A model generated the notes under the pieces. The model had not been told where the DNA came from. It was given only the letters and a program-made list of their open reading frames with translations, and did no database searches. From Escherichia phage vB_EcoM_ECO78, in the sequence record PP526941.1: 64,000 bases of DNA; one strand, written 5' to 3'. Both the position numbers and the translations under genes were made by a program. Below are positions 23,608 through 61,043 of this stretch, piece after piece; within the stretch, counting starts at the first letter, position 1; each line of letters begins with the position of its first letter.

Positions 23608-25664
23608 TACATTTTGAACTTTTTAGACATTCCGTTGATGTTAACCAAAGAAGCTAAGATTTGAGAAACTTCATTTTCCTCTTCTTTTGATTCTTCTACA
23701 AGGAATTGATTAAATCCAGCCATTGGACGAACTTCACCAGTTTCCATTAGATGGTCGCCATCATATACCGATTCCTCTAATTGTTCAGAAGGAGGAACGA
23801 TTGTACCTTCGATTAGATACTTGTTATAAGCAGTTTCTTTCATAAAGTACGTACTTACTTTATTAATCTTCAGTAAAATTCCACGTGGTAGAATAACTTC
23901 AGCTTCTGATGGAAATCCTGATAAATGACCTGGAACGATAACTTTGATTCGTTCAGCTCCTTTAATTACCATACCCACGCTAGTTTCAGCATCTTCATTA
24001 GCATATGTAGAATGACTACCCATATGCATCAAATCTTCTGCATCAACGGAACCTTCTCCTTCACCAGAAAATACTGCGCCGGAATCATCTAGAGCCATAT
24101 AGTTTTTACCATGCTCGCCGAAGATATTTGGTTTAAGTGATGTTGATACGAAGTTCTTGAAATAGAACATTTTATTTTCAATGTTATGACGCAAAGTTTT
24201 AAAGGTAACTTCTTGTCCGCGATAAAGCGTAGTTCCTGGAGGAAGAACTGATCCTTTGGCAAAGGCAGAATCAAGCGTCTCAATATGTTTAATAGCTCGT
24301 TCCATATATTCTTCACGGGTAGAATCTGGTTTACCCAAAAGGAACGAGTTCATTTCAACATATGAATCTGCACAATAATCTTCAATTACATCAGATTCAG
24401 CTTGAGTTAATCCTTTTGGAGTTACTTCAGTACTTGCATATTCATACGCCTGAGCGGCAGATTCATTAATCAATTTATAAATGCCATTCATTACAAATTG
24501 AATAATAGCTGTCTTTTCATCTGGCGTGGCTTTAGAACCTTTAACTAAATCATTAATAATTTTCTTAATAACATCAAAGCTATTAGAAATATTAATGTCA
24601 GCAAGATCGCTTAAAATTTTATCAGTTTTATAATCAAAGAATTCTTTATTCTTTAAATATTCTTGAGAACCTTGATATGTTATATCGCTCTGCAACTTGA
24701 TAGATGGATCACGTAAACGTGCATGGGCTAATGCAATATGATTTCGGAAGTTTTCTAGTTCATAATCGCTAGATTTAAAACGAGAAGCACTTCTCATACC
24801 ACCAATAGCTCCTTTGTTGAAGTTTGAACCAATCTGAATAACGCCAGAGTTCATCGGACCTTCTGCTTTATATACCGGAACCTTAGATTCAAACTCTTGA
24901 TATTTCTTAGCAGCGAAGCTATCACCCTGAAGTGAAGCATCAACAGTAGAATATTGAGCTTGTGCTGCTAATCGACGACTAATTTTAGTTTTCTGAATAA
25001 CAGCTTGATCAGTGCGCTTATCATTTTCTAAAGCAATAGAAGCAGCAACAGCGACAGCTTTAGGAACAGCATTACCTGTTTTAACGTCTACATAAACATC
25101 ACCAACCTTTGATTCAACTTTTGTGAATAACTCAGTTGAAATAGGAGGTACACCTGGAATGTCTTCTAAATTGGCATTTTTACGGTAAACCATAATATAT
25201 GCATACTTTTTATCATAGTCCCAGATTTCCTTTAAAAGAACATAACGACCTGCTCCTTTAGTACGTACTAAACGGTCAGCAATAACTTGCATTTGACGAG
25301 CTGCGCCATTTGTTTTACTTTTTAGTACGCGGAATAAGCATGCATCAATTTTATACTGTTTCATTGTTTGAAGAGCAGTATCAAAAACAGCATTAATGAC
25401 ACCAATTGGATTTCCACCCAAGTTTTTAAGCTTAACCAGCGATAGTTTCTCATTAACACCTATCATTACGATATGCATCATTTTATCGCCTGGCTTAACG
25501 TTTTTATTTGTATCACCGCCAGAGGTGTATGTACAAAATCTAAATCCAGGAAGCACGCTTTCTTCACCAGCTTGAATAGCAAAAATTTGAGGTATTTTAT
25601 GCTTAGGATTTAAGTTAACAACCGGCGCCGAAGCGCCGTCAAATAATTCTGTAATAAGTTCCAT
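23607..25664 (-). CDS. Alt-like ADP-ribosyltransferase, downstream paralogue
   Basis: 685 aa; N-terminus MELITELFDGASAPVVNLNPKHKIPQIF parallels the upstream Alt; C-terminal R-S-E ART signature (YRGQ...FVSTSL...SEAEVILPRG). Confidence 0.8.
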   Translation of the reverse strand: MELITELFDGASAPVVNLNPKHKIPQIFAIQAGEESVLPGFRFCTYTSGGDTNKNVKPGDKMMHIVMIGVNEKLSLVKLKNLGGNPIGVINAVFDTALQTMKQYKIDACLFRVLKSKTNGAARQMQVIADRLVRTKGAGRYVLLKEIWDYDKKYAYIMVYRKNANLEDIPGVPPISTELFTKVESKVGDVYVDVKTGNAVPKAVAVAASIALENDKRTDQAVIQKTKISRRLAAQAQYSTVDASLQGDSFAAKKYQEFESKVPVYKAEGPMNSGVIQIGSNFNKGAIGGMRSASRFKSSDYELENFRNHIALAHARLRDPSIKLQSDITYQGSQEYLKNKEFFDYKTDKILSDLADINISNSFDVIKKIINDLVKGSKATPDEKTAIIQFVMNGIYKLINESAAQAYEYASTEVTPKGLTQAESDVIEDYCADSYVEMNSFLLGKPDSTREEYMERAIKHIETLDSAFAKGSVLPPGTTLYRGQEVTFKTLRHNIENKMFYFKNFVSTSLKPNIFGEHGKNYMALDDSGAVFSGEGEGSVDAEDLMHMGSHSTYANEDAETSVGMVIKGAERIKVIVPGHLSGFPSEAEVILPRGILLKINKVSTYFMKETAYNKYLIEGTIVPPSEQLEESVYDGDHLMETGEVRPMAGFNQFLVEESKEEENEVSQILASLVNINGMSKKFKM

Positions 25665-25667
25665 GAT

Positions 25668-27764
25668 TTATCCTTGAACGAACTTGTAAGGCATGTTTGT
25701 AATATCTATGCAAGACGCAATAATTCCAAGAGATGATTCTACTTTTTGTTTAACATTTGATGAAACAAACGATGCAAAGTCAACTCTGTCTTCTATTTCA
25801 ATATCACCTGTCATTGCAACTACTTCACCGGTTTCCATTAGACGGTCACCGTCATAAATTACTGATTCGGTGAGTTCTTCCGTAGTCATAACTTCAGCTT
25901 GAATGAGTTTTGTATTATTAGATGTTGTTCCGTCATTATTAGAAGCATCAGTTATTTTATTAACTTTGACCATCAATCCGCGTGGTAGAATAACTTCAGC
26001 TTCTGTTGCTATTCCGAGACTTCCTGGATATACAACATTAACTTTATGAGCTCCATCAATTGCCCATCCTATTTGAACTTTAACGTATTCAGGATTTTCT
26101 TTATACGCTCTTATTTCGTTTGGATTAATAGTTATTCCTTCTTCATTTTTATCAACTGTCAATTCATTACGAGCTTCTGGTTCTAAAAGACCAATACCAG
26201 CATGCGTAATTCCAAAACGTCCAAAAATGATAGGAGTTAAAGAAGTAGATACAAAATTTCTGAAATAAAACACTTTATTTTTAACTAGTGCTTCGTATAT
26301 AGGAGCAGTCATGCTTTGAGCACGATAAACTGTAATGCCTTCTGGTATACGGTCACCGTTTTCAAAAGCTGAATCTAAGTTATTTATAGCAGATTCAATT
26401 TCTTTTTCACTCATTACATCATATCGTTCTGGATTGTAGCGACCCAAAAGAAGATTATTGATGTCAGTATATCCTGAACCGCAATACTCTCTAATGCCGC
26501 GCTTTTGTGATGGAGTATATTTAGAACCATCACGGGCAATAGTAATATCAATCATTGGACCTGCACCAATTCCAGAAAAGCTATAAATCATTCGTTTGAG
26601 GAATTTAGTTTTTGCTGCGTTCCAGGAATTTTTAGTTATTTCTTCCCAGACTTCATCTGGCTGTCCTTTACGGGTTTTATTATGTTTATCAAGCCAATTA
26701 TCTTTATATTCTTCAAAGAATTTATTAACAGCTGCTGCGTATTTCTCTAAACATTTTATTGAAGTAGTTGGTTCATTTTTAATCGCATTAAGAATTACAT
26801 CTTTAATTTTTTCAGAAACTTCATCAACCTCACTTTTTGAAAAGAATTTATAGTCATAGTGAAGTTCATTTGCAGTTCCTTCAGCAATAATTTTTGCTGC
26901 CTTAGTTTTAGAAGCTAATGAATTAATTCCAAGCTTCATTTCTTCTGCTTCGGGAATTAAAGGAGCGGTAGCAGGTTTATTAAAATTAGCTGCGGTAGAT
27001 TCATACTTCTGGAATAATTCACTTTCAAATCTAGAAGATTCTAATGATTGACTTTGCGCAATTGCTCTACGGGAAATTTTAACTTTAACAATAACAGCTT
27101 GGTCAGAACGTTTATCATTTTCTTGTGCAATAGATGCTGCAATTGCCTCATTTTTAGTTACTTGAGCTCCAGTATCTTTATTGATATAAACATCACCGAC
27201 CTTCGATTCAACTTTAGTAAAGAGCTCGGTACTAATTTCCGGAACTCCTGGAATGTCTTCTAGTGATACATTTTTGCGATGTATAAGAATATATGCATAC
27301 TTTTTATCATAATCCCAGAGTTCCTTAAGAAGGACGTATCTGCCACCTGAACGACTACGGATGAGCCTATCAGCAATAACTTGAATTTGTCGAGCTTGGC
27401 CAGCAGTTTTAGACTTAAGAATACGAAGCATACAAGCATCAATTTTATACTGACGCATAGTTTGCATTGCAACAGTAAAAACTGAATTGATATAATTAAT
27501 TGGGCTTGGTCCAAGACCTTTTAATTTAGCAATTGAACCTTTAGCAGTTAATGTAAAAGGAACAATATGCATCATTTTATCGCCCATCTTTAAATCACGA
27601 TTAGTATCACCTCCAGATGTATAGGTACATAAACGAAAGCCTGGTTGTTCAATTGCATCATCAACATGAACTGAAAAAATTTGCGGTATTTTCTTCTTTG
27701 GATTTAAGTTTGTAATCGGAAGAGTAGTATCTTCGTCAAATAATTCTGTAATGAGTTCCATCAT
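25668..27764 (-). CDS. alt: NAD-protein ADP-ribosyltransferase Alt (head-packaged)
   Basis: 698 aa (697 if started at the second ATG, 27761); N-terminal capsid-targeting region MELITELFDEDTT...; C-terminal ART motifs YRAQ...FVSTSL...TEAEVILPRG; late promoter upstream. Confidence 0.88.
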   Translation of the reverse strand: MMELITELFDEDTTLPITNLNPKKKIPQIFSVHVDDAIEQPGFRLCTYTSGGDTNRDLKMGDKMMHIVPFTLTAKGSIAKLKGLGPSPINYINSVFTVAMQTMRQYKIDACMLRILKSKTAGQARQIQVIADRLIRSRSGGRYVLLKELWDYDKKYAYILIHRKNVSLEDIPGVPEISTELFTKVESKVGDVYINKDTGAQVTKNEAIAASIAQENDKRSDQAVIVKVKISRRAIAQSQSLESSRFESELFQKYESTAANFNKPATAPLIPEAEEMKLGINSLASKTKAAKIIAEGTANELHYDYKFFSKSEVDEVSEKIKDVILNAIKNEPTTSIKCLEKYAAAVNKFFEEYKDNWLDKHNKTRKGQPDEVWEEITKNSWNAAKTKFLKRMIYSFSGIGAGPMIDITIARDGSKYTPSQKRGIREYCGSGYTDINNLLLGRYNPERYDVMSEKEIESAINNLDSAFENGDRIPEGITVYRAQSMTAPIYEALVKNKVFYFRNFVSTSLTPIIFGRFGITHAGIGLLEPEARNELTVDKNEEGITINPNEIRAYKENPEYVKVQIGWAIDGAHKVNVVYPGSLGIATEAEVILPRGLMVKVNKITDASNNDGTTSNNTKLIQAEVMTTEELTESVIYDGDRLMETGEVVAMTGDIEIEDRVDFASFVSSNVKQKVESSLGIIASCIDITNMPYKFVQG

Positions 27765-40072: not shown

Positions 40073-41251
40073 TTAAAAGTATTTTTTAAAACTCATCATA
40101 ACTTTATCATCAACATCATTATCAATCTGTGCAACAAGGTAAGATGACAGTTCTACTTCTTGTGGCGCGGATTGAACATTATCAGAATTAAGATATTCAC
40201 GAATCCAAGGATATGGATGTTTAACCGGAGCATCGGTAATTGGGCATGGAAGACCACACTGTTTCATACGAGATACAGTTAAGTAATCAATAAAGCTCCA
40301 CATGCTATTTGTATTTAATCCAGGAACATCGCCATCTTTAAATAAATGAACTGCCCAATCTTTTTCTTGACGGTTAACTTCCATGAAAATATCAACTGCT
40401 TCTTGTTCACACTCTTGGGCAATTTTAACCCATTCATCGCCATCAGTGCCAAGTTGAAGTTGACGAATAATATATTGGGTGCCCTTAAGGTGTAGTTGTT
40501 CATCGCGAGCAATGAACTTCATAATCTTGGCATTACCTTCCATGATTTCCATATTCTTGTGGAAGTTAAAGGTGCATGCGAAAGATACATAAAAACGAAT
40601 AGCTTCTAAGGCATTAATAACGTGCAAACAGAGGTAAAGAGATTTCATTAGCTCACGCTTCCAATATGTCTCATGCTCAATAGCATCTTCAATAATGTCT
40701 TCGTCTGCATTAATTTCTTTTTGGTATTCGATATCAGCTTTAGCGTTTTCCCAATAACGAGTTTTAATCAGAACATCATCATAATAACGTCCAATGGATT
40801 CAGCACGTTTCATAATAGCTTCATCTAATACAATTTCATCAAATACCTTCGATGGATCAGTATAAAGATTTCGCATGATATGAGTATATGAACGACTGTG
40901 AATAGTTTCACTAAAAGTCCATGTAGCAACCCATGTATCAAGACTTGGGTCTGAAATTAATGACATAAGTACGGCAGACGGCGCACGACCCTGAATGCTA
41001 TCCAAAAGTGATTGATACTTCAGGTTGTTAGTAAAAATATTTTGCTGGTACTGAGGAAGCTTATTAAACTGTGCAGCATCCATCATCAAGTTTACTTCTT
41101 CAGGACGCCAGAAAAATGACAATTGCTTTTCGGTTAAATCTTCAAAAACTTTATGGCGTTGAATATCATAACGCGCAATACCAAGACCTGAACCGAAGAA
41201 CATAGGTTCTTTTAAAACATCAACTGGATTTGTATTAAAAACTGTGCTCAT
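40073..41251 (-). CDS. nrdB: ribonucleotide reductase small subunit NrdB, uninterrupted
   Basis: 392 aa contiguous ORF; di-iron/tyrosyl-radical RNR beta family; synteny downstream of nrdA; no intron-sized interruption. Confidence 0.92.
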   Translation of the reverse strand: MSTVFNTNPVDVLKEPMFFGSGLGIARYDIQRHKVFEDLTEKQLSFFWRPEEVNLMMDAAQFNKLPQYQQNIFTNNLKYQSLLDSIQGRAPSAVLMSLISDPSLDTWVATWTFSETIHSRSYTHIMRNLYTDPSKVFDEIVLDEAIMKRAESIGRYYDDVLIKTRYWENAKADIEYQKEINADEDIIEDAIEHETYWKRELMKSLYLCLHVINALEAIRFYVSFACTFNFHKNMEIMEGNAKIMKFIARDEQLHLKGTQYIIRQLQLGTDGDEWVKIAQECEQEAVDIFMEVNRQEKDWAVHLFKDGDVPGLNTNSMWSFIDYLTVSRMKQCGLPCPITDAPVKHPYPWIREYLNSDNVQSAPQEVELSSYLVAQIDNDVDDKVMMSFKKYF

Positions 41252-43884: not shown

Positions 43885-44101
43885 ATTGTTTTTCCGTTAA
43901 AACAGTAATATCGTAGTAACAGTCAGAAGAAGTTTTAACTGTAGAAATTTTATTATCAAAATACTCACGAGTCATTTTATGAGTATAATACTTTTTACCA
44001 TAAATGATAATAGGTTGTTCTGGTCCTGGAACTTCTAACTCACTTGGGTTAGGAAGTGTAAAAAGAACAACGCCAGAAATATCTTTAAATCGTAAAATCA
44101 T
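43838..44101 (-). CDS. hypothetical protein (position of T4 nrdA.2)
   Basis: 87-aa ORF, ATGA-coupled to td. Confidence 0.45.
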
Positions 44102-44958
44102 ATTGCCATTTTCCCTTTAATTGCTGGATGCGATTCATAATTTTCAAGGATAAAATCTTTCGGTTTCATGTATTCAGTTAACCAGTAAAGCTGTGTTTCG
44201 GTGTCACAATTTCCAAACTCTATAGGCCAATCAATTTTAAGTTCACATAGTTCTTTAGGCTCACGACGTAAAATTTCTTTACATTGCTCAGTATGATTCA
44301 TATAGATGTGAGTATTACCACCAGAAAATATCAAATCTCCTGGGATAAGATTACACATCTTAGCCACAATATGCGTCAAGGCAGCGTACGAGGCAATATT
44401 GAATGGCAAGCCCAAGAAAACATCTACACTTCTTTGGTACCATTGTAAATCAAGATAACCATTACGCACATTAAACTGATAGAACATATGACAGGGCGGT
44501 AATGCCATTTGATTGATTTCAGCTGGATTCCATGCTGAAACGATTTGACGTCGATCAGTTGGTAATTTTTTAATACGATCAATAGTTTCAACTAATTGAT
44601 CCACACCACCGAAATCACGCCATTGTTTACCGTATATAGGACCAAGTTCACCACTATGATATCCTAGGTCTTTAGCCTGGTTTTCATAGTTATCGTCCCA
44701 AATAGTTTTACCTTGAATAAGACTACCATGAGTGCGAAGACGTAAATCATTAACATTGGTAGAACCGGAAATAAACCATAGAAGCTCAGCAATGCATGCA
44801 TTCCAGGCGAGCTTCTTAGTCGTTACTGCAGGAAAACCTTTAGTTAAATCCCAGCGTAATTTAGTACCGAACAAAGCAATTGTTCCTGTGCCCGTTCGGT
44901 CATCGGTTTCATAGCCGTTTTCAAGAATGTCTTTAATTAAATCTTGGTATTGTTTCAT
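44098..44958 (-). CDS. td: thymidylate synthase, uninterrupted
   Basis: 286 aa contiguous ORF; classical ThyA active-site region ([15 protein letters not shown]). Confidence 0.95.
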
Positions 44959-45002
44959 TTAGCACCTTATATAAATTATAATACATTTTATGAAGCTAAT
45001 AA

Positions 45003-45362
45003 TCAATACGGTTTAGCATCAAATTTTCTTTCAATTTCAGGCGTAAAATACAATTCTTTACCACGCTTGGAAAAGCGACCAATAATATGATAATTATTCT
45101 CATCAAACGTGATATTGCCGATATCCATAGCTTTCAACCAAATATCGATATTTCTGTCAAGCTTTATATCAAAATTCCAATATGGAGAACTATTACCAAA
45201 AATACTACAAGCGGATTCAGTGAAACAACTGCTATAAATCTTGTCTTTAGGAACTACTAATTGATAGACACCTTTAATAAACTGAGGACCCTGCCATTTT
45301 GGTTGTTTCGCGTCTTTTTCTAATAGAATAGGGTAATAATTAAAATTCATATTTTCCGCCAC
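45003..45362 (-). CDS. hypothetical protein inserted between frd and td
   Basis: 119-aa ORF with ATG start; no motif recognised. Confidence 0.55.
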   Translation of the reverse strand: MAENMNFNYYPILLEKDAKQPKWQGPQFIKGVYQLVVPKDKIYSSCFTESACSIFGNSSPYWNFDIKLDRNIDIWLKAMDIGNITFDENNYHIIGRFSKRGKELYFTPEIERKFDAKPY

Positions 45363-45370
45363 GTGTTATT

Positions 45371-46197
<827 letters not shown>

Positions 46198-46207
46198 ATT
46201 ATTTTCC

Positions 46208-46450
46208 TTAAACAGACTTTTTCACAATTTTCCAATCAACTTTAAACTGCTCGACGTCAGAATGGTAAATCCAGAATCCTGCGCTTTCTCCGTCTTCATA
46301 AAGAGGACATCCATCGCATTCATCTTCCCACCCCATATCGCGTAAAAGATGTTCAGCTTTTTCAACAAGTTCAGAATCTTTACCAATGATATTAAAATAC
46401 CATTTACCTCTAACTTCTGAATCTTTGATGCTCTGACGCTGTAATCTCAT
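46208..46450 (-). CDS. hypothetical protein (frd.x position)
   Basis: 80-aa ORF with GGAG SD, downstream of an early-type promoter. Confidence 0.5.
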   Translation of the reverse strand: MRLQRQSIKDSEVRGKWYFNIIGKDSELVEKAEHLLRDMGWEDECDGCPLYEDGESAGFWIYHSDVEQFKVDWKIVKKSV

Positions 46451-50534: not shown

Positions 50535-50542
50535 TATAAATA
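50535..50542 (+). promoter_or_regulatory. T4-type late promoter (TATAAATA) for gene 34
   Basis: Exact TATAAATA 35 nt upstream of the gene 34 ATG. Confidence 0.6.
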
Positions 50543-55632: not shown

Positions 55633-56295
55633 ATGGCTGATTTAAAAGTAGGTTCAACAACCGGGGGCTCTGTCATTTGGCATCAAGGAAATTTTCCATT
55701 GAATCCAGCCGGTGACGATGTACTCTATAAATCATTTAAAATATATTCAGAATATAATAAACCACAAGCTGCTGATAACGATTTCGTTTCTAAAGCTAAT
55801 GGTGGTACTTACGCCGCGACTGTTCGATTTAATGGAGGCGTACATGTTCCTACTATAGGTAGTAGTCAACAGTGTGGTGTTTATCCAGGTAACGGTGATG
55901 CAGCTACTTTTGCTATGGCAAATATTGACATCGTTTCGTGGAATGGTATTGGTTTTAAATCATCACAAGGTTCAGCAGACCGAACTGTTGTAATTAACGC
56001 TCGTACCGGTGATATCAGCAGTAAGGGCGGTTTTTATGCAACTGGTCCTGTCCGTTCTAACGCTACTGCTCCGGTTGCAGCAAATGACCTTACTAGAAAG
56101 GACTATGTTGATGGAGCAATAAATACTGTTACGGAAAATGCGAACTCTAGAGTGTTACGATCTGGCGACACTATGACGGGTAACTTAACCGCACCAAATT
56201 TTTTCTCGCAGAATCCTGCGTCTCAACCTTCACACGTTCCACGATTTGACCAAATCGTAATTAAGGATTCTGTTCAAGATTTCGGCTATTATTAA
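55633..56295 (+). CDS. 36: long tail fibre distal connector gp36
   Basis: 220 aa; synteny. Confidence 0.9.
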
Positions 56296-56303
56296 GAGGA
56301 CTT

Positions 56304-59300
56304 ATGGCTACTTTAAAACAAATACAATTTAAAAGAAGCAAAACCGCAGGTGCACGTCCTGCTGCTTCAGTATTAGCCGAAGGTGAATTGGCTATAAACT
56401 TAAAAGATAGAACACTTTTTACTAAAGATGATTCGGGAAATATCATTGATCTAGGTATTGCTAAAGGCGGTCAAATTGATGGAAATGTGACTATCAATGG
56501 TCTTTTAAGATTAAATGGGGATTATACACAAACTGGTGGAATGACCGTAAATGGACCTATTGGTTCTACTGAAGGCGTATCCGCCTTAGTTTTTAGATCT
56601 ATGCGAGGGTCATTTTACGCAAGAGCAACAAATGATACTTCCAATGCCCATCTTTGGTTTGAAAATACAAATGGATCAGAGAGAGGGGTTTTATATTCAA
56701 AACCACAGTCTGAAAATGAAGGCGTAATTACAATGCGTGTTCGTCAAGGAACCGCTGCGGGAGCTCAAAATTCAGAATTTCATTTCATTTCTACTGATGG
56801 CGGTATCTTCCAGGCACGCAAATTAACTGCTTTAACTTCTATTAGTACACCAACTATTAGTGTTAATTTAATTAATCATGATTCTAAAGCCTTTGGACAA
56901 TACGATTCGCAATCATTAGTTCAGTATGTTTATCCTGGAACTGGTGAAACTAACGGAGTAAACTATCTTCGTAAAGTTCGAGCTAAATCAGGTGGCACTA
57001 TGTGGCATGAGCTTTGTACTGCTCAGACTGGCCAGGCTGATGAAATGTCTTGGTGGACAGGTAATACTCCATCATCTAAACAATATGGCATTCGTAATGA
57101 CGGACGAATGGCAGGCCGTAATAGCCTTGCATTAGGTACATTCACTACGGGTTTCCCGTCTAGTGATTATGGTAACGTCGGTGTAATGGGCGATAAGTAT
57201 CTTGTTCTCGGTGACACTGTAACCGGTCTGAAATATATTAAGCAAGGTGTTTATGATTTAGTTGGTGGAGGTTATTCCGTTGCATCTGTTACTCCAGATA
57301 GTTTCCGTAGTACTCGTAAAGGTATATTTGGTCGCTCAGAAGACCAAGGTGCTACATGGAACATGCCTGGAAACAACGCCGCGTTTTTATCGGTTCAAAC
57401 ACAAGCTGATGAAAACACTGCTGGAGACGGCCAGACACATATTGGCTATAACTCAGGCGGTAAAATGAACCACTATTTCCGTGGTAAAGGCAAAACTAAT
57501 ATTAATACTCAAGAAGGCATGGAAGTTAACCCGGGTATTCTTAAACTAGTAACCGGTGCTAACAGTATTAGCTTTAACGCTGCAACAGGTAATATTGATT
57601 CTACATTAGCTTTTCGTCTTAATAAAGGTATAATTATTGATGGACCTGATAATCAGGGATTCCAATTTAATGCTCCGACGGCTGTAGATGGTACTAGAAG
57701 CATATACTGGAATAGTGGCACTCGCGCAGGTCAAAACAAAAACCCTGTTACAGTTAAAGTGTGGGGTAATTCATTTAACGCATCTGGTGATCGTAGTCGT
57801 GAAACCGTTTTTGAAGTAGCTGATGGGCAAGGTTACCATTTTTATTCTCAACGCGTAGCTCCTGCACCTGGTTCGACTGTCGGGCCTATTCAACTCCGAG
57901 TTAATGGTGGTTTATTAACTTCTGGTGGTATTACTGCTTCCGGTTCTATTGTTACTGAATCAAGTTTAGTTGCAAATAATGGATTATCTGTAAATGGTCA
58001 GGCTAAATTTGGCGGAACAGCAAACGCACTAAGAATTTGGAACGCTGAATATGGTGCTATTTTCCGTCGTTCGGAAAGTAACTTTTATATTATTCCAACC
58101 AATCAAAACGAAGGCGAAAGCGGAGACATTCACAGCTCTTTGAGACCTGTGAGAATAGGATTAAACGATGGCATGGTTGGGTTAGGAAGAGATTCTTTTA
58201 TAGTAGATCAAAATAATGCTTTAACTACTATAAACAGTAACTCTCGCATTAATGCCAACTTTAGAATGCAATTAGGACAAAATGCTTATATAGATATTGA
58301 GGCTTCTGATGGAATTCGCCCAACAGGTTGTGGTTCCTTTGCATCTCAGAATGACGTAAACGTCAGAGCTCCAATTTATATGAATATAGAGCGTACTGCT
58401 ACTTCTGAATATATTCCTATTGTTAAACAGCGTTATGTGCAAGGTGATAGCACTTATTCTATTGGGACATTAATTAATCAAGGAGATTTCCGTGTTCATT
58501 ACCGCCAAGGCACCGGTACGGGTGGCACTGATTTGAGTTGGGAATTCCGTCGCACAGGCGATTTCCGCGCGGCAGGTAAAATTATTGCTGGTGCTGCTAC
58601 TCTTGGCACTGATGGTAATATCACCGGTGGTTCTGGTAACTTTGCTAACCTGAATACCACATTAAATCGTAAGGTAAATTCCGGATTTGTAACATACGGT
58701 GCAACGGCCGGATGGTACAAATTCGCTACAGTAACGATGCCACAATCTACTTCTACTGTTTCATTTACTATAACTGGTGGTAAAGGATTTAATACCGGAC
58801 TGTTTACACAATGTGCTATAACAGAAATTGTTCTTCGTACTGGTAATGACCGCCCAGCAGGTTTAAACGCCGTGATGTATACCAGAACAGCGGCAGGTCT
58901 TACTGATATTGCTGTAGTTAATACCTCAGGAAATACATATGATGTCTATGTTGAAGCTGGCACTTATGCCAACCAATTAGCTTATACCTGGCATACAGTT
59001 GATAATGCTACCGTAGAAGTTATTGGCGCTTTTGGTCCTACTCAAGACCCGGTAGATTCTTTGCCGGCTAATTATGTTAAAGGCCAAGTAGCTAACATGC
59101 TTAACAACCTGGTAGACACAGGTAAAGTAAAACGTTATGTAGCAGATTCTGAAATTGCTATTAATAACCAAACGGGTCTTCGTATTACGAGTAATTATGA
59201 TAGATCAGGTTCTAATTCCGTTTTGTTTCGAAATGACGGTGGAAGCTTCTATATTTTACTGACTGACAAAAACTCTTCAGACGGCGATAATAAAGCAACT

Positions 59301-60227
59301 GAAGGTGATTGGAATGGAAAACGACCATTTTCAATTGATATGACTGCTGGTACTGTTCGTCTTGGCGAAAATACTTCTTTTAGTAAAGATGTTACTATTG
59401 ATGGAAACATTAATTCACGAGTTAAAGTTGTCGGACAGTGGAATGTTAGCTTTTCTGATATTTCAGATGTGACTCGTGACCGTTCTGCATTTTTAGTGAA
59501 TACGGGTGGCATTTCCAATACAAGTCAATCTTATTACCCGCTATTTTCTGGATACAGTTTTTTAACTGACGCGGGTTATCGCCAATCGTTTGAATTTGGA
59601 TGGTTAGGTGTTTCTGGTACTTGGCGTCAAGGTATTATTCGCATGCGTGGTGACAACGCATCGGGGCAACAGGCTCGTTGGACTTTTGATATGGATGGAA
59701 CATTTTATGCTCCTAAATTGGCTTGCGGTTCTACCGGTGCCCTCGGTATTAACACATCCAACGGATGGGGTGGTAACTCAATTGCAATTGGTGATAGCGA
59801 TACTGGTTTTAGACAAGTAGGCGATGGGCTTTTAGAAGCGTGGGCGAACAACGTTAAAGTTGTTAGATTCACTTCGAGCGAAGTTTATTCCGAGAAAAAC
59901 GTCAATGCTCCTAACGTTTATATTCGTTCTGATGTTCGCTTGAAATCTAATTTTAAACCTATTAAAAATGCGCTCGAAAGGGTTGAGCAACTTGATGGTT
60001 TAATCTATGACAAAGCTGAATATATAGGCGGTGAACCTGTTCAAACTGAAGCGGGTATTATAGCTCAAACGTTACAAGACGTTTTACCAGAAGCTGTCCG
60101 TGAATCAGAAGATAGCAAGGGTAATAAAATACTCACTGTTTCTTCTCAAGCCCAGATTGCTCTTCTGGTTGAAGCTGTGAAAACACTTTCTGCTCGTGTA
60201 AAAGAACTTGAATCTAAACTTATGTAA
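56304..60227 (+). CDS. 37: long tail fibre distal subunit gp37, T2-type, with C-terminal intramolecular chaperone domain
   Basis: 1307 aa; conserved N-terminus; C-terminal about 99 aa begin with the SDxRLK motif typical of autocleaving intramolecular chaperone (S74-like) domains. Confidence 0.9.
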
Positions 60228-60228
60228 A

Positions 60229-60246
60229 AGAGGGCTTCGGCCCTCT
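60229..60246 (+). terminator. GC hairpin (AGAGGGC-UUCG-GCCCUCU) between genes 37 and 38
   Basis: Perfect 7-bp stem with UUCG loop followed by AAGGAUUUUUA, which contains the gene 38 SD. Confidence 0.45.
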
Positions 60247-60257
60247 AAGGATTTTTA

Positions 60258-61043
60258 ATGGCAATTGTAGGTGTTCCTGGCTGGATTGGTGAATCTGCTG
60301 TGAATGAAACTGGACAACGTTGGATGGATGCTGCGATGAAAGCTGTTCGTGTTTCAGTTCCCGGCTGGATGAGCTCAATGGCTGGACAATCTAAAGAAAT
60401 TCATTATAGCATTGGTGCTAGCAATTCTTACAATAAAGACACTCTTATTAACTGGATGAAAGCACAGGGGTCTACTCCGGTAGTAATTACTATTACAGGA
60501 AATATTGTTTCTTCATCGACAGGTCAACCATGCTTAGATTTTCCTAGCTCATTAACTAATGCATACGTGACACTTAATATCAATTCAGGCGTGCATGTTT
60601 GGGGTCGCGGCGGGAATGGTGGAAATAACTCTGCTGGCGGAGCAGGAGGAACTGCAATAAATAACGGAATTGGAACTAGATTACGTATTAATAACAATGG
60701 TGTTATCGCAGGCGGCGGTGGCGGCGGTGGCGGCGGATACTACTCTCCTTTTTCACAAATGAGATTGACTTTTGGTGGAGGAGGCGGTCGTCCATTTGGT
60801 GCGGCTGGCGGGTCTGCTAATATGGAACAGGGTGCTACTGCTGGTACTATTTCTGCGCCCGGTAAAGGGTCTGTCAACGGTATCTATAATGGCGGGAATG
60901 GTGGTGATGCCGGTGCCGCAGGAGGTAAATGTAATATTCGCGGTCAAGGATCAGAATATAATGGCGGCGCTGCTGGTAAAGCTGTTACTGGTAATGCTCC
61001 AACTTGGACTAAAGTTGGTACAATATATGGTGCAAGAGTATAA
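60258..61043 (+). CDS. 38: T2-type receptor-recognising adhesin gp38 (glycine-rich motifs)
   Basis: 261 aa; C-terminal half built from glycine-rich tracts (GRGGNGGNNSAGGAGG, GGGGGGGGGY, FGGGGGRPFGAAGG, NGGNGGDAGAAGG) separated by short variable segments. Confidence 0.85.
   Translation: MAIVGVPGWIGESAVNETGQRWMDAAMKAVRVSVPGWMSSMAGQSKEIHYSIGASNSYNKDTLINWMKAQGSTPVVITITGNIVSSSTGQPCLDFPSSLTNAYVTLNINSGVHVWGRGGNGGNNSAGGAGGTAINNGIGTRLRINNNGVIAGGGGGGGGGYYSPFSQMRLTFGGGGGRPFGAAGGSANMEQGATAGTISAPGKGSVNGIYNGGNGGDAGAAGGKCNIRGQGSEYNGGAAGKAVTGNAPTWTKVGTIYGARV
60711..60737 (+). repeat. 9-bp tandem repeat (GGCGGCGGT x3) encoding a poly-glycine tract in gp38
   Basis: Three consecutive near-identical 9-mers read directly in the sequence. 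Confidence 0.8.

Follow-up and report, generated by a model that had tools for sequence, protein, structure and literature searches.

The distal tail fibre of phage vB_EcoM_ECO78 raises the question of whether its large subunit ends in a domain that helps the fibre to trimerise and then cuts itself off, and of which T-even phage the resulting fibre tip resembles. We addressed this in a 64,000-nucleotide stretch of the genome (PP526941.1), hereafter called the window. The genes at the locus lie in the T-even order 34-35-36-37-38-t, and gp34, gp35 and the holin show 93-99% identity to their T4 and T2 counterparts. The 1307-amino-acid ORF between gp36 and gp38 is gp37, so that 56304..60227 is gene 37 of a Tequatrovirus. 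Two Pfam families, PF21446 and PF13884, were matched on gp37. A preliminary description of the sequence had placed a chaperone-like domain in the last 99 residues of the protein. The corresponding stretch, 59928-60224, comprises 99 codons in the gp37 frame and is directly followed by a TAA stop, so the domain ends at the gp37 terminus.

The features of gene 37 are as follows.

56304..60227, + strand: gene 37, long tail fibre distal subunit precursor, 1307 aa, 140.3 kDa
56304..59927, + strand: predicted mature gp37, aa 1-1208, 129.4 kDa, C-terminus NAPNVYIR
59778..59927, + strand: distal tip segment of mature gp37, about aa 1159-1208, predicted gp38 docking platform
59925..59930, + strand: predicted scissile bond R1208/S1209, codons cgt tct
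59928..60224, + strand: C-terminal intramolecular chaperone domain, aa 1209-1307, 10.9 kDa, pI 5.0
59928..60101, + strand: Pfam Peptidase_S74 core, aa 1209-1266
59928..59945, + strand: catalytic motif S1209-D-V-R-L-K1214, Ser nucleophile with Lys at +5
60144..60221, + strand: C-terminal alpha-helix, aa 1281-1306

The C-terminal domain of gp37 belongs to the Peptidase_S74 family

The Pfam profile PF13884 (Peptidase_S74, "chaperone of endosialidase") matched aa 1209-1266 of gp37 with an E-value of 1.7e-13. The match covered profile positions 1 to 58 of 58, with position 1 falling on S1209, and its score of 51 bits exceeded the curated threshold of 22 bits. The domain search of the gp37 C-terminus that had been proposed as a check thus returned significant similarity to the chaperone family.

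A word-indexed search with the 149-residue C-terminus retrieved no more than 6 proteins, most of them fragments, along with one chimera. Because this was too shallow to be used alone, an exhaustive HMMER scan was run against 1.84 billion protein cluster representatives, and it returned 20,167 proteins at E <= 0.001, of which 313 reached E <= 1e-10. In a conservation alignment of 155 rows (the query and 154 relatives), S1209 was kept in 152 rows, and D1210 and K1214 in 154 each. Further downstream a Gly and an Ala were kept in every one of the 155 rows, a Gln in 152 and a Pro in 154. All of these near-invariant columns (SDxxxK, G, AQ and P) are present in the ECO78 domain, and the conserved Ser that the preliminary description had put at the start of the domain is S1209. 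Of the 154 relatives, 142 have the domain no more than 10 residues from the end of the protein. At the amino acid level it is 88% identical to the domain of T2 and 97% identical to that of KFS-EC3, with dN/dS values of 0.14 and 0.29, respectively, which indicates purifying selection.

Residues 1209-1307 of gp37 are therefore a member of the Peptidase_S74 family by sequence (a profile score above the gathering score), by the S-D-x-x-x-K motif, by their position at the extreme C-terminus and by the modelled fold described below. The chaperone-like domain proposed earlier was borne out on these grounds, and by orthology to T2 and S16.

Chance likeness to the family, in which an ordinary amphipathic C-terminal helix would happen to follow a fortuitous SD..K, was also considered. 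It was ruled out: the PF13884 match, the 20,167 proteins found in the scan and the fold comparison refute it, and the similarity goes far beyond chance.

Structural relatives of the domain

The AlphaFold2 (AF2) model of the 149-residue query shows a region of mixed alpha and beta structure and, behind it, a long C-terminal helix. The helix spans query residues 123-148, that is gp37 1281-1306, with pLDDT values of 90-97, in agreement with the terminal helix claimed from the sequence. From the structures of T5 and K1F, this helix is expected to be the trimeric coiled-coil element of the chaperone. Confidence in the tip segment (about aa 1159-1208) was only 52-67.

When the model was compared with known folds, the comparison figures were 7.6 for 7DC3 (MyRF ICA domain), 6.1 for 3GW6 (K1F endosialidase chaperone), 5.4 for 4UW8 (T5 pb1 with its chaperone) and 5.3 for 3GUD (GA-1 neck appendage chaperone). 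The next best figure after these members was 2.9, for an unrelated structure. The TM-scores were moderate, 0.55-0.59 to MyRF and lower to 3GW6, and they refer to a monomer model of a kind of domain that works as an intertwined trimer.

A PDB profile search built from 26 sequences gave S16 gp37 (6F45_A) with an E-value of 1.9e-18, the MyRF ICA domain (7DC3) with 1.5e-13, the tail fibre 8JOV with 1.4e-13 and the released GA-1 chaperone (3GUD) with 4e-4. The start of chain 3GUD_A (SDERHK) aligns exactly with S1209, and so does the SD of S16. With a single sequence as the query, 6F45_A was aligned across both the tip and the chaperone domain (E 1.4e-10), the tip carrying the motif SIAIGDxDTG. When the PDB was searched with the domain as a single sequence, no entries other than 6F45 and MyRF were recovered; the links to K1F, T5 and GA-1 required profile or fold comparison. 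Foldseek aligned the tip with the modelled residues of 6F45 over 48 columns, 42% of them identical. The construct behind 6F45 comprises 204 residues, chaperone domain included, but only 68-72 of them were modelled, and this fits removal of the S16 domain.

Proposed maturation of gp37

Characterised relatives suggest how the domain would act. In T5 pb1, Ser1264 is activated by Lys1269 and cleaves the preceding bond once the trimer is folded (PMC4690869). In both K1F and T5 the active site is completed by upstream residues, which in T5 are an Arg of the neighbouring chain and an Asp (PMC4690869), and because the Arg of the neighbouring chain completes the site, T5 cleavage depends on correct trimerisation. 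S1209 and K1214 of ECO78 gp37 have the same i+5 spacing as the T5 pair. Upstream of S1209 the candidate arginines are R1208 and R1188, for which we obtained no sequence alignment to T5 Arg1250/Asp1239. In both the K1F endosialidase and T5 pb1 the domain is described as a trimer-folding chaperone (PMC7289586, PMC4690869).

For fibres with a gp38 cap, the literature agrees with the earlier statement that T2 gp37 is C-terminally processed: gp37 of T2 and T6 is reported to undergo proteolytic cleavage at its C-terminus before gp38 caps it (PMC3157838, citing Drexler et al. 1986). In S16, gp37 removes its own last 113 residues by a cut at S^SDRRIKK, and in the fPS phages a cut is predicted at DVYIR^SDGRLKI (PMC7917993). 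The ECO78 junction NAPNVYIR/SD is identical to that of T2 and matches the DVYIR^SD of the fPS phages.

On the basis of these relatives, we consider it highly probable (about 0.9) that aa 1209-1307 form a Peptidase_S74 intramolecular chaperone that trimerises gp37 and then cleaves itself off, this estimate covering the whole of the following four-step pathway. For the chaperone role and the cleavage, as for the exact bond and the docking of gp38, we rely on analogy with those systems.

As the domain trimerises, three gp37 chains would be brought into register from the C-terminal end, the terminal helix forming a coiled coil. The general fibre chaperone gp57A would probably also be required for gp37 trimerisation. 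Functional assembly of S16 and T2-type fibres is described as relying also on gp57A and on co-expressed gp38. Once the trimeric tip had folded, S1209, activated by K1214, would cut the R1208-S1209 bond in each chain, and the precursor of 140.26 kDa would give predicted products of 129.41 and 10.87 kDa. The small fragments would then depart and leave a mature gp37 of 1208 residues ending in NAPNVYIR. Cleavage would thereby expose the tip, where gp38 would dock as a cap.

The position of the domain suggests another role. It sits exactly on the surface later bound by gp38 (PMC7917993), and each gp37 C-terminal subtype always pairs with one gp38 N-terminal subtype (PMC3157838). The domain might therefore be cleaved as proposed and yet play a minor part in folding, masking the gp38-docking face as a checkpoint or timer, with gp57A, and perhaps gp38, doing the work of chaperones. 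That T-even gp12, gp34 and gp37 require separate chaperones (PMC4690869) would agree with such a division of labour. We regard it as improbable, since the characterised members, K1F endosialidase and T5 pb1, use the domain as a trimer-folding chaperone and since the ECO78 domain keeps the full set of conserved residues at a low dN/dS. Masking and chaperoning are, in addition, not mutually exclusive.

It is less probable still that the domain stays on the mature fibre, as an inactive pseudo-protease or a structural cap, with gp38 binding elsewhere. Such retention is conceivable because cleavage in ECO78 is deduced from relatives. Against it, the catalytic Ser, Asp and Lys are intact, the junction has exactly the sequence found in T2, where gp37 is reported to be proteolytically processed, and the S16 gp37-gp38 crystal is without the domain although the construct encoded it. 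Self-cleavage after trimerisation remains the preferred reading.

The fibre tip is of the T2 type

Over its full length ECO78 gp37 is 62% identical to T2 gp37, whereas its 68% identity to T4 gp37 is restricted to aa 1-839. T2 gp37 has 1341 residues, and its Pfam S74 match lies at aa 1243-1300; the domain forms the last 99 residues, aa 1243-1341. T4 gp37 has 1026 residues with Collar and Phage_fiber motifs at the C-terminus, and Pfam found no S74 domain in it. BLASTP revealed no similarity between the two proteins past aa 839 of ECO78 gp37, ECO78 gp37 has neither of the T4 domains PF07484 and PF03335, and 59001-61000 had no DNA match in T4. Neither hallmark of a T4-type tip, a gp37 C-terminus with the Collar/Phage_fiber His-box or a T4-like gp38, was found in ECO78. 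Two T2-type traits are present, namely a gp38 adhesin, with an N-terminal attachment domain and a glycine-rich specificity domain, encoded directly downstream, and a gp37 tip related to the structurally defined tip that receives gp38.

The name gp38 covers two unrelated proteins, as the T4 record also states: T4 gp38 is an assembly factor, and the "gp38" of the T2 subfamily is an adhesin. The T2-like character that had been ascribed to the distal fibre module was confirmed: the 99-residue domain and its junction recur in T2 gp37, and the domain is missing from T4 gp37. The T2-type tip is reported to be the predominant form in T4-type phages, T4 being the exception (PMC3157838, Trojet et al.).

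Gene 38 and the intergenic region

Gene 38 begins shortly after gene 37, and a hairpin lies between them.

60258..61043, + strand: gene 38, T2-type tail-fibre tip adhesin, 261 aa, starting 30 nt past the gene 37 stop
60229..60246, + strand: UUCG-loop hairpin in the gene 37/38 spacer, AGAGGGC-UUCG-GCCCUCU

The glycine-rich gp38 that had been noticed downstream of gene 37 was verified as a T2-type protein. It matched PF21721 (Gp38_N) over aa 1-42 with an E-value of 7.2e-18 and PF05268 (GP38) over aa 47-261 with 6.9e-72, and BLASTP found no similarity to T4 gp38. By analogy with the relatives above, we infer that it caps the cleaved gp37. A common allele, present in vB_Eco_NR1, IME339, KFS-EC3, JK1, the slur phages and the BASEL phage FriedrichMiescher, matches it at 97-98% identity.

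The hairpin is stable and may have a role in RNA stability or partial termination. It is directly followed by AAGGAUUUUUAAUG, which holds the ribosome-binding site (AAGGA) and the start codon of gene 38. T2, KFS-EC3 and JK1 all carry the 30-nt spacer unchanged, and T4 has a similar GGGGCUUCGGCCC hairpin in the corresponding position. T4 late-promoter motifs (TATAAATA) occur at 50535 and 55602, just upstream of genes 34 and 36. No such motif was found from gene 36 to the holin gene, which makes it probable that the gene 36 promoter also drives genes 37 and 38 as one transcript.

The fibre locus is a mosaic of T2-type alleles

The preliminary description had also held that the genome is mosaic at the host-range locus, with a T2-like distal fibre module set among genes, such as the ligase, that look T4-identical. 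The first part stood, in that the locus is mosaic, but of T2-type alleles; the argument for a T4 backbone drawn from the ligase did not. The ligase is 98.8% identical to that of T4 in amino acids and 97.0% in nucleotides, and 99.2% and 96.9%, respectively, to that of T2. Like the ligase, most of the window is equally close to both phages, and the gene was rejected as a sign of a T4 backbone. Almost all of the window shows 96-99% identity to T4 and T2 alike, and the aligned fraction is slightly better to T2 (93%) than to T4 (88.5%). With a backbone about equally near to T4 and T2, the ligase is uninformative on mosaicism.

Judged from the sequence comparisons, the fibre locus is a fine patchwork of different T2-type alleles, and the closest relatives change along it.

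56600-59650: closest to 310Ecol104PP and JK1, mostly 80-100% nucleotide identity
59750-60250: closest to KFS-EC3, 95-99% nucleotide identity
gp38: closest to vB_Eco_NR1, IME339 and KFS-EC3, 97-98% amino acid identity

Within the first of these regions identity was above 90% from about 58560, and only 63-82% to JK1 across 58180-58560. From 55700 to 59700, in the middle of gp36 and the gp37 shaft, identity to any one phage swings between about 50% and 100% within a few hundred bases. Examples are JK1 at 55708-55860 (99-100%), 310Ecol104PP at 56680-57130 (97-100%) and T4 at 58030-58180 (97-98%). The best DNA matches to gene 37 were about 90% identical, and no record in the phage collection exceeded about 91% identity over at least 80% of the gene length. 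The exact gp37 and gp38 sequences were absent from a collection of 15 billion proteins.

A near-invariant block across the gene 37/38 junction

A block of about 245 nt (about 60045-60290) covers chaperone codons 40-99, which are the 3' two-thirds of the domain, the 30-nt spacer and the first 30 nt or so of gene 38. It is 95-99% identical in nucleotides to T2, KFS-EC3, 310Ecol104PP and JK1, and the mosaic sequence on either side falls to 60-85% identity with most of them. The 18 codons of the domain that differ synonymously from T2 are unevenly spread: 16 lie in chaperone codons 1-39 and 2 in codons 40-99. Apart from the local hairpin, no significant RNA fold was obtained for the whole block (60045-60290; z = -1.0).

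The likelier explanation is that the block has been homogenised by recombination at a conserved junction, and this fits the lock-and-key pairing of gp37 C-terminal with gp38 N-terminal subtypes (PMC3157838). A more speculative and, in our judgement, unlikely explanation is that the block is kept as a dedicated recombination bridge, or as an RNA-level signal for gene 38 expression. If it were correct, gp37 shafts and gp38 adhesins would be exchangeable independently among T2-type phages, and the chaperone domain would double as a homology arm of the host-range cassette.

Other observations in the window and in public collections

Region 24001-26700 has no or a weak match in T4 and is 96% identical to T2. 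Its T2 counterpart holds a second full-length Alt-like ADP-ribosyltransferase gene, of which T4 has only the remnants alt.-1 and alt.-2. In a 1-kb BLAST scan the T4 coordinates jumped at about 7000, 40600-41000, 44000-46300 and 47900. The jumps match T4 mobile elements, namely segD, the nrdB intron with I-TevIII and mobE, the td intron with I-TevI, and segG. As far as coordinate jumps can tell, the window appears to be without these elements, like T2.

Among the database hits in public collections (proteins P0002, P0004, P0005) are short gene calls, 95-121 aa long, that cover nothing but the chaperone domain; one such call lies on a 168,860-bp contig under the name 'tail fiber domain-containing protein [Escherichia coli]'. 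A chimera in these collections joins a PF01594 membrane protein to the last 46 residues of the chaperone domain. Such domain-only calls and the chimera are probably artefacts of gene calling or assembly.

Implications for annotation and fibre engineering

The chaperone domain of gp37 is an already described feature, known from T2, T6, S16 and the fPS phages, and adds little new biology; ECO78 carries the form of tip that predominates in T4-type phages (PMC3157838). For annotation, the predicted mature fibre ends at R1208. In a fibre swap, a fusion or a recombinant receptor-binding protein, aa 1209-1307 should be kept in the precursor and loss of the domain expected. Host range should be read from gp38 and not from the gp37 C-terminus. 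Since the predicted cut follows an Arg, a tryptic digest cannot tell autocleavage from cleavage by trypsin.

Comparison with known systems

Among the structural relatives, the MyRF ICA domain (7DC3) belongs to a eukaryotic membrane-bound transcription factor, and its cleavage sets a transcription factor free instead of maturing a fibre. The chaperones of K1F (3GW6), T5 pb1 (4UW8) and GA-1 (3GUD) are founding members of Peptidase_S74, with 6-23% identity to the ECO78 domain. They follow unrelated mature domains, that is a sialidase beta-helix spike, a bullet-shaped fibre tip and an appendage, and none of the three is capped later by a separate adhesin. The T5 domain has 133 residues and carries long beta-hairpin tentacles (PMC4690869).

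T4 shares with ECO78 the locus, the gene order and a homologous gp37 over aa 1-839 (68%). In T4, by contrast, the gp37 C-terminus is itself the adhesin, and the unrelated gp38 acts in assembly and does not form part of the virion.

S16 gp37-gp38 (6F45; Dunne et al. 2018, summarised in PMC7917993) has a homologous tip and chaperone domain (E 1.9e-18), an SDxRxK cleavage motif and the same gp38 Pfam families, and its domain is removed before gp38 docks. The S16 domain is longer, with 113 residues compared with 99 in ECO78, and is cut after a Ser (DLNVS^SD), whereas the predicted ECO78 cut is after an Arg (NVYIR^SD). Upstream of the chaperone domain S16 gp37 differs strongly from its fPS Tequatrovirus homologues (PMC7917993). 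In the fPS phages the predicted site, DVYIR^SDGRLKI, is almost the same as NVYIR^SDVRLKS of ECO78 and the same T2-type logic of gp38 docking applies; the gp37 shaft and gp38 alleles are different, and cleavage is likewise predicted there.

T2 resembles ECO78 in the position of gene 37, the 99-residue domain, the NAPNVYIR/SD junction, the 30-nt spacer between genes 37 and 38 and the type of gp38. The two phages differ in the gp37 shaft, overall identity being only 62%, and in gp38, which is 76% identical only over the N-terminal 148 residues. The specificity domain of gp38 diverges from that of T2, so the host receptor specificity of ECO78 is probably different.
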